A DNA stretch of 62,274 nucleotides, the filler included, from Globobulimina sp. (taxonomy: Eukaryota), in the NCBI GenBank assembly GCA_003354225.1. It is 24 parts of 24 records of this genome, joined end to end, with 100 filler letters (N's around TTAATTAATTAA, not from the genome) between each part and the next. Parts side by side here need not be neighbours in the genome. Positions count along the whole stretch, not along the records: positions 7,804 to 10,304 come from PIVH01006309.1; 23 more parts are not named here. The stretch is one strand, 5' to 3'. This document shows positions 7,804 to 12,904 of this stretch, piece by piece. Below the pieces are notes generated by a model. It searched no databases and had not been told where the DNA came from. It saw only the letters and a list, made by a program, of their open reading frames with translations. The position numbers and the translations under genes are program-made. How positions within the stretch are numbered: the first letter of the stretch is position 1; each line of letters starts with the position of its first letter.

Positions 7804-9122
7804 ATGTTTTCAATCTCCGACTCATTTGCCAAATTATCATCCAATACATCCACATCTTCCTTAATGGTATAATTTGTATTGCCAGAATCAAGAGCTGAGT
7901 AGGATATAGTTTTAGTTTCCAATGCTTTTGTTTGTGCGGATACTGATTGCGGACTCGGCAACTCAATGCTCGTTGCGGCGATGTTTAACATTCTACTTTG
8001 CTGCACTTGCACCACAGTCACTTTCTTCACAGTATCTCTTTTAACACAACACATCACACATTCATGCACAATGCGGTCACATCTGCACCAATATTTGTAT
8101 AAATTGAGATTAAATCCAAGACTCAGATATATAATAAACGCACCCAGCGCATAATTCACAATTGTGATCCAAAACCATCGCGCTAAACTTAATATTTTTG
8201 CTGCAGCATAATGTGGTGCCCAATAATATCGATAAGCAGTCAGTATGCCTGAACCGCAACTAATTGCTATGATTGCTACGGTGATGGTTAACATCTTCGT
8301 AATTACCTGCAGCAATTTGGCATCTCTGTCCATGTTTGATTTTGTTAAGTTATCGACATCATTTTTGATTTCTGTTATGGTCTTAGAATGTTTAACCAAT
8401 ACATCCGATGTCATTGAATTCACCAAAACCATTTCCAAACGCTTTACTAACAACAATATTAAATGAGAAATACCGAGGAATACGCAGAGAAAACTTGTAT
8501 ATGCCAAGACCTGTCCAATTCGAAATTTTCTGCCAAAGTCCTGGCCAAATATTTCCATGGTTATGTTGCCTAAAGGAAAGCCAATGGCCGCTGTTATCAT
8601 AAACAGTGCATGGACTCTTTTGGTGCAACGTGAGACATTGAAGTCGTCGCCAGATTGGGCTATGGTTAATATTAACATTGAATAAAAATACATATAAAAC
8701 AATAGTGAGACAAATCCAATTAATACAGCAAAAACAATTAAAGCAATGTAGCCAAGGGGATAGTTTTGGGCTTGTATCCAATTTCCGTATTTTAGGATGC
8801 CATAACCGTTACAGGCAAACGTCAAAAATGCTAAAAAATATGCACAGAGGAGTACATCTGTTGGAGCTGGCAATACACAGATATTTACACATTCAAAGTA
8901 ATCTGATTGTGAGCCACAACAAATTGAACAATATTTACAAACATCTGGTTTGTTTCGTTCATTTGGTTGTGATTTTCGAACTATTTTATATATCAATGAG
9001 AGTAATAATATTAATGAAACAAATGCTACAAATAATGACGCTATTCCTCTGTAATATGGGTACTCGGATTCTAATTGCCAAGATTTTGAATATTTATCTA
9101 GCGAATCTAAACCCTCTGACAT
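7804..9122 (-). CDS. Seven-transmembrane (GPCR-like) receptor, 3' partial
   Basis: Intronless ORF with seven hydrophobic segments, a long third intracellular loop, a Cys-rich post-TM7 segment (YKYWCRCDRIVHECVMCC) and a Cys-rich loop after TM1. The likely start is MSEGLDS at 9122. Confidence 0.75.
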
Positions 9123-9178
9123 TGTTAAAAAGGTTTTCCTTCTGACTTCTGACACTTTTATAAACCTTAGCATCAAAC

Positions 9179-10304
9179 ATGGGGAACCAACTCAAGCCAA
9201 TCCCATCAAATCAAACCTTAAGTACATCCACATTGGCAGATTATGCATCAAATAAATCAATCACACCCACAATCAATTCCTCGTCGACATTAGAGTCAGA
9301 TGCATCAAGCCGACATGTTTCACCCTCACCACAGCCACCATCTCATACAAACCGTATTGTATCTAGCAAAATTGTTCAAATTGCTGCTGATTTTTGGAAT
9401 AATCAAATGACTCAATTATCATATAAACAGCAATTAGTTACCTACCTACATTATATTATTTATATAGCATATATATACTGCATATATTCGTAATTAATAT
9501 TTCGTATTATCATAAAACAAAATACAGGAAATCGGTGTAACTATTTATTTAGGAATGATGGTCAAAAATAAACGCATGCAACCATTTCAAAAACATTTCC
9601 GCTCAAAAGACGAAAATGTAAAAATAGAAACAATCAGTTTAAAATTTGTAAACATGGTAGGATGGTTAATACGGACATTATTACGAAAAGATGACAATTT
9701 ATCCGACATATTAGCCAATGTAGGCGCTATTCATCGCCAATTGAATGTTGACATGAAACATTTTGCTGCTATGTTAGAATCGTTGCATGAAACATTTACG
9801 CATTACTTTCCAAATTCATATAAAATACAGGTTTGACTATATATAAATTATATAAATCTGTACATATTACTGTACGAACAGGAAAAATATGCAATTGATT
9901 ATACGTTTGGATTGGCCACAAAACTGATGATGGGACAAAGAATAAAACCTAAGAATGATGATAATTATTTGAAGAATTTAAATTCTTGTTTAAAATCATC
10001 AGTTGGAAGGGAATATTTATTCAAATATTTGCAACAAAGTATGTATATACGTATATGCTGTGTGATTTGCCTAACTTTAATATTATGTAAACTGATCTGA
10101 CAGCGTGGTGTGACGAGATAGTGATTTATTTGAAAGCAATGATGAAATTCAAGAATCAGACCACAGATAAAGGCCGATTTATGATTGCTAGAAATATCAT
10201 TGAAGTGAGTATTGATTCCAAATCCAATTTGTGTTTAAATATTTCATATGAAACAAGACAAAATATGTTGACAATGATGAATCAGGGGAAAACTCAGTAC
10301 CAGA
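9179..10304 (+). CDS. Globin-RGS fusion protein with Gly2 N-terminus (4 exons, 3' partial)
   Basis: Exons 9179-9436, 9528-9830, 9882-10038 and 10104->10304, with in-frame GT-AG introns of 91, 51 and 65 nt. Globin motifs: ADFW, EIGVTIY, LANVGAIHRQLNVDMKHF. RGS motifs: LNSCLKSSVGREYLFKYLQQTWCDEIVIYL...ARNIIEVSIDSKSNLCLNISYETRQ. Confidence 0.85.
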
Positions 10305-10404
10305 NNNNNNNNNNNNNNNNNNNNNNNNNNNNNNNNNNNNNNNNNNNNTTAATTAATTAANNNNNNNNNNNNNNNNNNNNNNNNNNNNNNNNNNNNNNNN
10401 NNNN

Positions 10405-12904
10405 ATCTGCAACAATCAAAGAAAGATATGCGTCCATTGTGTATTTATTTGACTTTGAAAATATGAATCAAGAAAAAAGTGATGAATTAAAATTTGAAAT
10501 TACAATCGATTCCGATGCATTTATCTCCAAATTCATTGCAACTATTGATGGTGAATTATTTTATGGAAAAACACAGGGAAAAAAGCAGCAAAACAAGAAT
10601 ACAGCGAAGCAAAAAAAAATGATGAAAATGCCATATTAATATCTCAGCCACATACAAACATTCCAAATATTCCAAATAAAAACAAATATCGACTCAAAAT
10701 CGAAAATATCATTAAAGATCACCATTGGACAATATTTAAAGAAAAAATTTAATTTTAATCAATTAAATATTCAAATTCTACGCAGCTTTAATAAATATAA
10801 TATCACACAAAATTTTGATTTTATATCATTCGAATTCAACATTACGGATTTAAGCGGGATTTATGATGTAAACATTCCAATTTCATCAGACACAGACAAT
10901 GACAATAATAGTCAGGGCATAATCATTCAAAATAGAACAATGGACAAACTACACAAAAATTGCATGGTAATCGGTAAAATTATGACGAAAACATCATCAA
11001 TGAATGAATTTGTATTAAAATATAAAATCAAGGGAGAACAAAATGATTCATATATTCTATTTGATAGAGGCAGCAACACATTTTGTCATATTATATCTGA
11101 TGTTATTACAGATTCAATGGTTGAGCAATATGATGATTATGCAAACGAAGGAAATGATGATGACATTAAACAAAATGTATTAATTCCGCGACGTGTTGTA
11201 TTTGTCATTGATAAATCGGGAAGTATGCGGGGTCCAAAATGGAATAAAACAATATCTGCCACACTCACTGCTTTAACACAATTAAGAACATTATATGATA
11301 GGTATTGCGTCATATTGTTTGATAAAATCATAGATTTGGTGCCGTGCACTGGAATGATGGCAGTAAATGAGGACAGTATACAGCAAACTGTACAATATAT
11401 AAAAAGCAAAAGTGTGAATGGAGGGACTGATATAAATAATGCGTTATTATCGGCAATAACAATGATTAAAAACGACATTGTAAACTTAAATAATCAGACC
11501 GCGGATGGTAAGGCAGCAAATTATAACTTTTTTATGAATCAAATAATATTTATAACGGACGGTGAGCCAAACCGAGGAGTGACAAATCCAAAGCAGATAA
11601 TGTTGAATGTTGGAAGTGCAAATACGTTGAGTGAGATTGACAAATATTTTAACAAAATCTCAATATTTTCGTTTGGAGTTGGTACAGATAATAATGATTC
11701 GTCGTGGATTAAAGATTTAAACCATTCTCTTTTAAAATTATTAAGTGTAAATAACGGTGGTTATTATAAACGCATTAAACAAAATTCAGCTGACACCGAT
11801 TTGACTGCAAATTATAATATTTTATCCAAACCGATATTATCAAATATCAATGTCAAATATGACAATGACGGCATTACAAATGTGACAAACACCGCATTCA
11901 ACACATTATATGCAGGAAATGATATTATTATTTGTGGCCAAATTGAAAATGACGACAAAAATGACTTGGATGTATCATTGACAATATCTGCCACCACAGG
12001 AAAAGAAATAAAATTAAATGATGGCACATTAGTAACGAAACCAATCCATATTTATAAAAAAATGCAATTGCAAATGCTGATGAATGGTGATGATGAAAAT
12101 AAAAATATTGAGAGAATCTGGGCATATTTAAGATTGAAACAATTTGCAAATAAGAAGTTAATGAATAACACCACGAGCAATGGTATGTTATCTCCATTAT
12201 CATTAGCAATGAAATTTAAATTTGTCACACCATGGACCTCAATGATTGTGGTTAAAAAAAAAGATAATAAACAAATTGAAACAGAATCTCAAGTGGTACA
12301 AAAATCAGATTATGATAGTAACGAAAGAAAAACACGTTCACTGTATGCAAAAGCCGGGTATTTACCAACAACAAATCCATTTTCTCGAACGGATTCGTAT
12401 GGCGTTGTGAAAAAGGCACAATCCATACAGAAATACGTCAAGTTTGAAGCAGTAAAATCTGCAAAACATAAACCTGTGATATCAGATTGTTATGACGTGA
12501 TAAAAACGGAAGAGTCAAAATCAAATGTTTCGGAAAGAGATTTTTATAAAACATTCTGGATCGAAGCTGGTAGAATTGGAGAGGGCGCATTTAGCAGAAT
12601 ACGAACAATAACACGGAAATCTGACAAAAGGAAGTTTGCGTTAAAAATGATTAAAAAAAAAGGAAGATCAATGGCTGAAATAAAAAATGCATCGCAAGCA
12701 ATTGAGATACTGAAACAATGTAAGCATGAAAATATTATCCATTTGGAAAGTTGGTGTGATACCAAAAAAAGATTGTATATTGTTGTTGAAATGAGTGAGG
12801 TCGGAGAGATAAATTTAATTCAATATATTATAAATGCTGCAGATAAGAAATGGTCACAGCACAAAATGATGAATATTATTAAACAAATTGTTGGCGGACT
12901 GCAG
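10405..12904 (+). CDS. VIT + vWA (ITIH-like) protein fused to a CAMK-like Ser/Thr kinase domain; VIT region frameshifted; both ends partial
   Basis: VIT-like DAFISKFIATIDG; MIDAS DKSGSM, GGTDIN and FITDGEPN; IERIWAYL/FVTPWTSMIVV; kinase IGEGAFS, ALKMI and KHENII. Two frame changes near 10585 and 10668. Confidence 0.8.

Follow-up and report, generated by a model that had tools for sequence, protein, structure and literature searches.

A spliced globin-RGS gene from Globobulimina sp. and its foraminiferal family: candidate haem sensors acting on G-protein signalling

The stretch of DNA analysed here, from the Globobulimina sp. assembly GCA_003354225.1 and called the window in what follows, is 62,274 bases long and consists of 24 contigs of ~2.5 kb separated by 23 spacers of the form N44-TTAATTAATTAA-N44. 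Because the window is made of separate contigs, sequences on the two sides of a spacer are not genomic neighbours, and the genomic context of the gene described in this study is limited to its own contig, 7804-10304 (PIVH01006309.1). This contig carries a four-exon gene of a foraminifer-like eukaryote, whose product would have ~350-370 residues, the first 299 of them encoded on the contig. It begins with Met-Gly and a leader rich in Ser, Thr and Pro, followed by a globin and then by an RGS domain. An earlier note on this DNA, made from the sequence alone, had proposed this order, and Pfam, a profile of the family and the structural model of a relative all agree on it. We are highly confident that the architecture is that of a real, spliced globin-RGS gene. 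The features are listed in Table 1.

The reading frame opens with the ATG at 9179-9181, reading MGNQ, and the joined four-exon frame is free of stops. The introns are richer in AT than the exons (GC 0.21-0.31 vs 0.27-0.38). In tblastn searches, exon 1 aligned with the relative P0001 over 9179-9436, and the alignment to relatives has a 17-residue gap exactly at intron 2. We built a family profile from 47 relatives, which include three near-duplicate pairs and exclude the window sequence, and compared it with the 1298 stop-to-stop open reading frames (ORFs) of at least 25 amino acids in the whole window. Matches were limited to the four exon ORFs, with E-values of 1e-8, 1e-36, 9e-17 and 1e-24 for exons 1 to 4, and the next best ORF in the window had an E-value of 0.67. 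The exon ORFs tile the profile in order, covering its positions 1-88, 87-187, 186-246 and 245-312. Once spliced, the 299 residues match the profile in one stretch at 327.5 bits, against at most 0.2 bits for 20 shuffles, and they are 58% identical to the relative P0157 over 320 columns (E 6e-122). Relatives that are themselves derived from transcripts are collinear with all four exons and bridge every junction exactly. With regard to intron placement, intron 1 falls between 'QQL' and 'EIG', immediately ahead of the B helix, and intron 2 between 'KIQ' and 'EKY', where helix H begins; we take neither of these sites to be one of the classical globin positions, B12.2 and G7.0.

Ten public sequencing runs match the stretch, none of them on record as RNA, and four were mapped: X1, the best-matching run, X6 and X7, which come from one sample, and X8, which comes from another study. 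Joints at 9436|9528, 9826|9878 and 10038|10104 were found within single contigs of X6, X7 and X8, the middle one being marked 'cut +4', which places it at 9830|9882. These are the same three GT-AG introns through which the earlier note had joined four small ORFs, and its model of the splicing stands. Every joint skips a GT..AG segment, and the shorter side of each joined match is 63-252 letters long. The contig depth is 63-86 over the globin-RGS gene vs 8-9 over the neighbouring gene. The X1 contigs are unspliced, running through intron 1 (8900-9809) and through intron 3 (9892-10171), and X1 has no cover over 9840-9886, at intron 2. At the 5' end, one X6 contig begins at 9174 and one X8 contig at 9172, the latter with adapter-like loose letters before it. 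Transcripts starting at ~9172-9174 imply a very short 5' untranslated region and make the ATG at 9179 the first one. The spliced contigs of X7 and X8 also have a 6-nt in-frame insertion (two codons) after 9354, in the disordered leader. Chance ORFs were considered as an explanation of the four reading frames and are ruled out by the spliced transcript contigs together with the ordered tiling of the family profile, and the presence of spliceosomal introns, together with relatives in foraminifera, rules out a prokaryotic origin.

Table 1. Positions, strands and descriptions of the features discussed, counted along the window
Feature	Position	Strand	Description
Exon 1	9179-9436	+	86 codons: Met-Gly start, Ser/Thr/Pro-rich leader, globin A helix (ADFW)
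Intron 1	9437-9527	+	91 nt, GT..AG, phase 0, GC 0.21
Exon 2	9528-9830	+	101 codons: globin helices B to G
Intron 2	9831-9881	+	51 nt, GT..AG, phase 0, in-frame TGA at 9834-9836
Exon 3	9882-10038	+	157 nt: globin H helix, short linker, first RGS helices (LKNLNSCLKSSVGREYLFKYLQQ)
Intron 3	10039-10103	+	65 nt, GT..AG, phase 1
Exon 4, transcript-supported part	10104-10284	+	RGS core
Last 20 nt of the contig	10285-10304	+	matched by no mapped contig; reading 'GKTQYQ' doubtful
B10 Tyr codon	9546-9548	+	from alignment of P0002 to 3s1i_A
E7 Ile codon	9633-9635	+	from alignment of P0002 to 3s1i_A
F8 His codon (VGAIH)	9732-9734	+	aligns with His of 'GRRHK' in 3s1i
Cys-Asp-Glu-Ile	10109-10120	+	aligns with RGS2 'CEEN'
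Glu codon GAG	10115-10117	+	Glu in 43 of 47 relatives
Ile at the Asn position of 'FCEEN'	10118-10120	+	from alignment to RGS2
Asn codon (LNIS)	10238-10240	+	aligns with Asn of RGS2 'EINI'
Seven-helix membrane protein gene	7804-9122	-	439-aa piece, cut by contig start
Spacer between two head-to-head start codons	9123-9178	.	56 bp
Spacers between contigs	begin 2502, 5103, 7704, 10305 and onward		N44-TTAATTAATTAA-N44

The 3' end of the gene is missing, a point that had escaped the earlier note, which took the gene without noticing that the contig runs out within it. The N spacer starts at 10305, directly past the cut, and because the contig ends inside the gene, roughly the final third of the RGS domain is absent from the window. 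All of the mapped contigs that reach 10284 lose their match to the window there: an X1 contig ends at this position, and contigs of X6 and X7 go on past it with other letters for more than 255 nt, a continuation that by eye stays in frame and resembles the relatives at the same point. A canonical intron starting at 10285 was considered and is ruled out, as there is no GT there. The last 20 letters, 10285-10304, stay unexplained and may be an assembly tip or a variant.

The first domain can be recognised as a globin from a single exon. Exon 2 alone passes the Pfam Globin profile PF00042 (24.4 bits, E 4.3e-5, cut-off 22), in line with what had been expected of it, and exons 1 and 3, each searched singly against Pfam, gave no match. 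In the relative P0002 (388 aa) Pfam scores the globin at 30.2 bits and the RGS domain at 23.9 bits, the latter equal to the RGS cut-off. When the family profile was compared with the PDB (284 distinct sequences at E<=1), Hell's Gate globin I (3s1i) was found at E 4e-16; the best PDB globins, 3s1i and 3ubc, both carry the name 'Hemoglobin-like flavoprotein'. Entry 3wfw, in which a Hell's Gate globin is joined to a Roadblock/LC7 domain, matched the profile at E 1e-11.

The AlphaFold2 model that we used, made with the alignment of the 47 relatives, is that of P0157 (370 aa), the closest full-length relative at 58% identity, and not of the window's own chain. Its mean pLDDT, the model's own confidence score, is 82.6, rising above 90 across both domains, and residues 1-72 are disordered. 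Residues 79-227 form a complete 3/3 globin (Z 16.2), which superposes on 131/131 residues of 3s1i_A at a root-mean-square deviation (rmsd) of 2.1 Å, and neuroglobin (1oj6) is among the Foldseek matches of this half. A search of the ESM Atlas with residues 78-370 returned no usable match and was uninformative. By hand mapping, the globin of P0157 corresponds to approximately 9356-9941 of the window and its RGS part (residues 231-368) to 9951 onward.

To place the globin residues of the window we used the alignment of P0002 to 3s1i_A. The B10 Tyr, the Phe of the CD region and the proximal His at F8, all of them landmarks picked out in the earlier note, keep their places in this alignment to solved globins. 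Conservation among the 47 relatives is strong on the proximal side, F8 being His in 45 of them, with the preceding Leu in 39 and the preceding Gly in all 47. The distal side varies: B10 is Phe in 20 relatives and Tyr in 19, CD1 is Phe in 23, and E7 differs widely (Leu in 11 relatives, Gln in 10, Thr in 6, Ile in 4 and His in 2, with other residues in the rest). A kept proximal side together with a diverse distal side would be the look expected of haem proteins with differing ligands. The window copy has Ile at E7, so the observation that a distal His is missing was right, but the resemblance to sensor globins that had been drawn from it does not extend to lineage: the profile of the protoglobin-type sensors, PF11563, scores 13.2 bits on exon 2 and 16-22 bits in 6 relatives, all under the cut-off of 25. 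Judged by these profiles, the globin is of the single-domain or flavohaemoglobin-like kind and stands outside the protoglobin-type sensor lineage.

The second domain is harder to see in the window itself. There an intron interrupts it and the contig stops before it is complete, and exon 4 alone scores 14.7 bits against Pfam RGS (PF00615; E 0.042, cut-off 23.9). The RGS profile match that had been predicted is reached or exceeded by relatives (27.7 bits in P0157, up to 58.4 bits in others besides P0002). A single-sequence search of the PDB with P0002 got as far as RGS14 at E 0.16, and it took the family profile to reach RGS domains. With the profile, RGS2 is matched at E 6.5e-14, RGS18, RGS1, RGS10, RGS5, RGS8 and RGS16 at E-values from 1e-13 to 1e-9, and RGS4 (1agr_E) at E 1.3e-8; axin (E 1e-8) and EhRGS-RhoGEF (E 3.9e-8) are matched as well. 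In the model of P0157, residues 231-368 adopt the nine-helix RGS fold. They reach Z 16.2 with RGS8 (126/131 residues, rmsd 2.2 Å), while RGS4, taken from the complex with Gi-alpha-1, gives Z 16.1 (114/116 residues, rmsd 1.6 Å), and Foldseek agrees on both folds of the protein. The globin ends at ~227 and the RGS domain starts at ~231, leaving a linker of a few residues. The earlier note had asked for a structure prediction, and in this relative it yields a globin fold and then an RGS fold.

Aligned with RGS2, the family places 'fCdEl' on 'FCEEN', 'eini' on 'EINI' and 'eenhWkkF' on 'ENNSYPRF'. The Asn that the earlier note had assigned to the catalytic-Asn site indeed falls in the column of the 'EINI' Asn of RGS2, which we take to be Asn128 of RGS4, in contact with the catalytic Gln of G-alpha. 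It is kept in 36/47 relatives. The Cys of 'FCEEN' is found in 44 of the 47 and the Asn of 'ENNSY' in 35; these shared residues are presumably two of the three that underlie the Gq preference of RGS2. The last helix has a Trp in all 47 relatives and a Phe in 46, and before the last helices the family has a 12-residue insertion relative to RGS2. Going by the alignments and the model, the RGS fold and part of the predicted G-alpha interface are canonical.

Many more such proteins are already in public collections. A search for longer proteins with exon 2 gave 4 matches (28 candidates) and a search with P0002 gave 7 (1500 candidates). Against 1.84 billion representatives, P0002 matched 164 clusters at E<=1e-3, 99 at E<=1e-10 and 35 at E<=1e-30. 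From 150 listed representatives we scanned 50 with Pfam, 43 chosen because they span both domains and 7 because they are long; at E<=0.01, 23 of the 50 had both Globin and RGS, 21 had RGS only, 4 had Globin only and 2 had neither. At least one relative, P0005, is marked for both Globin and RGS by the automatic Pfam labels of a public transcriptome set. For 30 representatives we looked at the taxon labels: 19 were labelled, all of them as Foraminifera (Nonionella stella, Bolivina argentea, Elphidium margaritaceum or Ammonia sp.), 11 were unlabelled, and no other taxon appeared. Among relatives with a taxon label, then, the globin-RGS family has so far been seen only in Foraminifera, which agrees with the earlier picture of a rhizarian protist from hypoxic sediment. 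N. stella and B. argentea are reportedly species of a study on foraminifera of oxygen-depleted sediments. That foraminifera are noted for thriving in such sediments is described in the part of PMC8153729 drawn on here.

Some of the relatives are much longer than P0157, namely P0012 (974 aa), P0024 (661), P0049 (908), P0071 (725), P0074 (775) and P0091 (676). In P0049 and P0071 Pfam places an RGS domain at ~310-490, ahead of the part that matches the globin-RGS query (~606-818), a hint of RGS-plus-globin(-RGS) variants.

Turning to the N-terminus, the window protein starts MGNQLKP, with Gly at position 2, and 33 of the 47 relatives likewise have an MG start. Simple PROSITE-type patterns for N-myristoylation call for a small or uncharged residue at position 6, and 21/47 relatives fit such a pattern. 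The window copy has Lys there and fails it, although the pattern is crude and the protein may be myristoylated all the same. The earlier suggestion that Gly2 permits N-myristoylation therefore keeps its Gly and loses the support of the pattern. Given these start sequences, a lipid anchor on the globin-RGS protein is plausible, and the Met-Gly terminus is probably myristoylated.

Putting these pieces together, we consider it somewhat probable that the protein is a membrane-associated haem sensor, in which the ligand or redox state of the globin is passed through helix H and tunes the action of the RGS domain on activated G-alpha. Such a protein would consist of the putatively myristoylated N-terminus, a predicted disordered leader of ~60 residues, a complete 3-on-3 globin with F8 His, B10 Tyr, CD1 Phe and an aliphatic E7, and an R4-like RGS domain. 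We infer that the globin would bind haem through the F8 His. Binding of O2 or nitric oxide (NO), or a change in the redox state of the iron, would then shift the F, G and H helices, and as helix H is followed almost at once by the first RGS helix, a change in the globin would be expected to alter how the RGS domain engages activated G-alpha at the membrane. In this way, how long G-protein signals last would be set by the ambient gas or redox state.

A number of results speak against this reading, and they touch the transcripts, the globin and the RGS domain in turn. As for the transcripts, the label 'RNA?' on X6-X8 is a guess, and it is their intron-less contigs that were treated as derived from complementary DNA. 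Moreover, the spliced contigs are ~94-97% identical to the window and are from another copy: 5-19 letters differ per exon (~3-6%), so that they come from an allele, a strain or a close paralogue and not from an exact copy of the window. It might be supposed on these grounds that we are dealing with a pseudogene, or with an artefact of assembly, and that no protein is made, an idea with which the contig-end cut, the disagreement of the last 20 nt with the transcripts and the finding that none of the spliced contigs in the mapped runs is 100% identical are all consistent. We give it hardly any credence, because the frame is open across four exons, the splice sites are exact and the product is collinear with expressed relatives. 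In addition, 18 of the 37 listed differences between transcripts and window are synonymous, which is above the unconstrained expectation and suggests purifying selection on the gene.

As for the globin, Pfam Globin is not found at E<=0.01 in P0157, nor in 21 of the 43 scanned proteins that span both domains. These failures, along with the presence of CD1 Phe in just 23/47 relatives and B10 Tyr in 19/47, would fit a globin fold that has lost its haem and now plays a structural, dimerising or regulatory part ahead of an ordinary RGS protein. We regard this as quite improbable, since the F8 His and the Leu and Gly before it are kept in nearly all or most of the family (45, 39 and 47 of 47, as given above), the full 3/3 fold is modelled at pLDDT above 90, and the window copy has the B10 Tyr, the CD Phe and the F8 His together. 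Alternatively, the globin could do the work of an enzyme or a buffer, for example as an NO dioxygenase, in the handling of nitrite or NO, or in storing O2; the RGS domain and the lipid anchor would only put it in place, and its ligand state would signal nothing. Its closeness to the single-domain and flavohaemoglobin-like proteins 3s1i and 3ubc, and not to the PF11563 sensors, would suit such a role, as would relatives that come from foraminifera of oxygen-depleted sediments, where NO chemistry is plausible (for the habitat, see the corresponding part of PMC8153729). This explanation is nonetheless improbable in our view: the fusion to RGS with a short fixed linker is kept in at least 43 divergent representatives, which is hard to account for by localisation alone, there is no reductase partner domain, and E7 and B10 are variable, unlike in dedicated NO dioxygenases.

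As for the RGS domain, the Pfam RGS scores of the close relatives are marginal (23.9 and 27.7 bits vs the cut-off of 23.9), and the RGS sequence of the window stops at 10284, placing its last helices beyond judgement. Within the interface, the position of the 'FCEEN' Asn is never Asn in the family (0/47; Ile in 15, Leu in 15, Met in 7, and others), the Trp of 'EFW' in RGS2 is replaced mostly by Leu (33/47; Leu270 in P0157), and a basic position towards the domain's end varies, with Lys or Arg in 19/47. The missing Asn is presumably Asn88 of RGS4, a contact to switch I of G-alpha, and with this switch-I Asn absent, canonical GTPase-activating protein (GAP) activity may be weakened or lost. The leading alternative, since the switch-I Asn is absent throughout the family, is an RGS domain that works as a non-GAP module binding G-alpha or another protein, as in GRKs, axin and RGS-RhoGEFs, so that the fusion would be a haem-regulated scaffold, effector or factor resembling an inhibitor of guanine nucleotide dissociation (GDI). 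Apart from the hydrophobic, non-Asn residue at this position in 47/47 relatives, it draws on the matches of the family profile to axin and EhRGS-RhoGEF, on the account, in the relevant part of PMC3971589, of RGS domains that have lost GAP activity and become scaffolds, and on neuroglobin, which passages of PMC4842972 describe as acting on G-alpha-i as a GDI. We think this alternative unlikely, though it deserves to be taken seriously. The best matches in both sequence and structure are GAP-active R4 proteins (RGS2, RGS18, RGS1, RGS8 and RGS4), and the interface Glu (43/47) and Asn (36/47) are kept.

The sole neighbour of the globin-RGS gene on the contig is a gene on the opposite strand whose start codon stands head to head with its own. 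The 439-aa piece of the neighbour matches no Pfam family at E<=0.01, and raising the limit to 10 gives DUF1129 alone, at E 2.4. It has five homologues that are 48-64% identical. Its predicted structure is of low confidence (pLDDT 57, with helices at 70-85) and shows seven long helices. Structurally it is matched best by TMEM87A, in the seven-transmembrane part of that protein (Z 19.4, with an rmsd of 3.4 over 250 residues), and further matches include Ste2, microbial rhodopsins and many G-protein-coupled receptors at Z 13-16. In Foldseek the neighbour's model found nothing at E<=0.001, the best match having E 0.089. If the model is right, a gene resembling seven-transmembrane proteins lies beside an RGS gene, a single case that we find suggestive, and the neighbour may be a receptor whose signalling this globin-RGS copy modulates. 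The next contig of the window has a 770-aa open frame on the + strand (10640-12904) that runs to the contig end; by eye it has a 'DKSGSM' motif like that of von Willebrand A domains, and later in the frame come motifs resembling those of protein kinases.

No account of a globin-RGS protein came up in our searches of the literature, which did not extend to subscription journals or supplements, in keeping with the earlier note, which likewise knew of no characterised one. The main texts of two papers on foraminiferal transcriptomes, PMC8153729 and PMC11736642, whose supplements were outside the scope of the search, contain none of the terms 'globin', 'hemoglobin', 'G protein' or 'RGS'. Independent radiations of RGS proteins in rhizarians, with many RGS architectures, are described by De Mendoza et al. 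(PMC3971589), and in the part of that paper considered here no globin partner appears. The globin-RGS sequences are thus already public, and the fusion is undescribed as far as our searches of the literature reach.

In its logic the globin-RGS protein would be a globin-coupled sensor, a group whose examples include HemAT, DosC and the globin-coupled histidine kinases. In both cases the globin is N-terminal and leads straight into a signalling domain at the C-terminus, B10 is Tyr, E7 is not His, and the presumed path from ligand to output is the same. Going by the profiles, it nevertheless lies outside the classical sensor-globin lineage: classical globin-coupled sensors belong to PF11563, whereas the foraminiferal globin belongs to PF00042 and scores 13.2 bits vs the required 25 with the sensor profile. 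The known sensors are also bacterial or archaeal, while this gene is eukaryotic and spliced, and a eukaryotic RGS output was not found among the described outputs in our literature searches. Haem-based gas sensors in general have chemotaxis, cyclase, diguanylate-cyclase and kinase outputs, and RGS proteins have many partner domains.

A close relative of the globin itself is joined to a different partner in 3wfw, where the protein is bacterial and both the fold of the partner and the class of GTPase are other than here; we take its Roadblock/LC7 domain to belong to the MglB-type family of small-GTPase regulators, which makes it a prokaryotic counterpart in that a globin is coupled to a GTPase regulator. 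With the R4 RGS proteins (RGS2, RGS4, RGS8, RGS16 and RGS18) the family has in common the fold (Z 16.1-16.2, rmsd 1.6-2.2 Å over 114-126 residues), the interface Glu and Asn, and the Cys and 'ENNSY' Asn of RGS2. It differs from them in the hydrophobic residue at the 'FCEEN' Asn, the Leu that mostly stands at the 'EFW' Trp, the 12-residue insertion and the fusion to a globin.

The nearest eukaryotic precedent is found in trypanosomatids, whose oxygen-sensing adenylate cyclases (OACs) have an N-terminal globin and a C-terminal cyclase, according to PMC7719234, which cites Sen Santara et al. 2013; they include the globin-coupled haem adenylate cyclase of Leishmania and are likewise protist globins fused to a C-terminal signalling enzyme. 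The output of an OAC is a cyclase that makes cyclic AMP, and that of the globin-RGS protein is predicted to be a regulator domain for heterotrimeric G proteins. The two also differ in number, as passages of the same paper (PMC7719234) give one OAC gene for most trypanosomatids and several for some lineages, against 164 clusters of globin-RGS proteins. The nearest functional parallel is human neuroglobin, which in its ferric form binds G-alpha-i-GDP as a GDI, so that the redox state of a haem governs binding to G-alpha (PMC4842972, in the part relied on here). Neuroglobin acts in trans, with its own surface and on the GDP form, whereas the globin-RGS protein would use an RGS domain in the same chain and the activated form.

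If the coupling of the globin to the RGS domain is true, O2, NO or redox state would act directly on how long a G-protein signal lasts, by a path that is easy to assay, and there is an intriguing parallel with the redox-dependent action of neuroglobin on G-alpha-i that is reported in PMC4842972. Being large and varied in the distal pocket, the family would offer a natural series for studies of how ligand selectivity is tuned. For the Foraminifera as a whole, it is possible, though we would stop short of calling it probable, that they have evolved and greatly multiplied a group of haem sensors, held by a lipid anchor and acting on heterotrimeric G proteins directly, with distal pockets (Tyr or Phe at B10; Leu, Gln, Thr, Ile or His at E7) tuned in each paralogue. 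The signals to which they are tuned would be O2, NO, nitrite chemistry or sulfide, and the RGS domain would set the length of the G-alpha signal. Should this be so, the family would give G-protein signalling its first globin-coupled input, and it would be part of how these protists navigate and survive in steep gradients of oxygen and nitrate.

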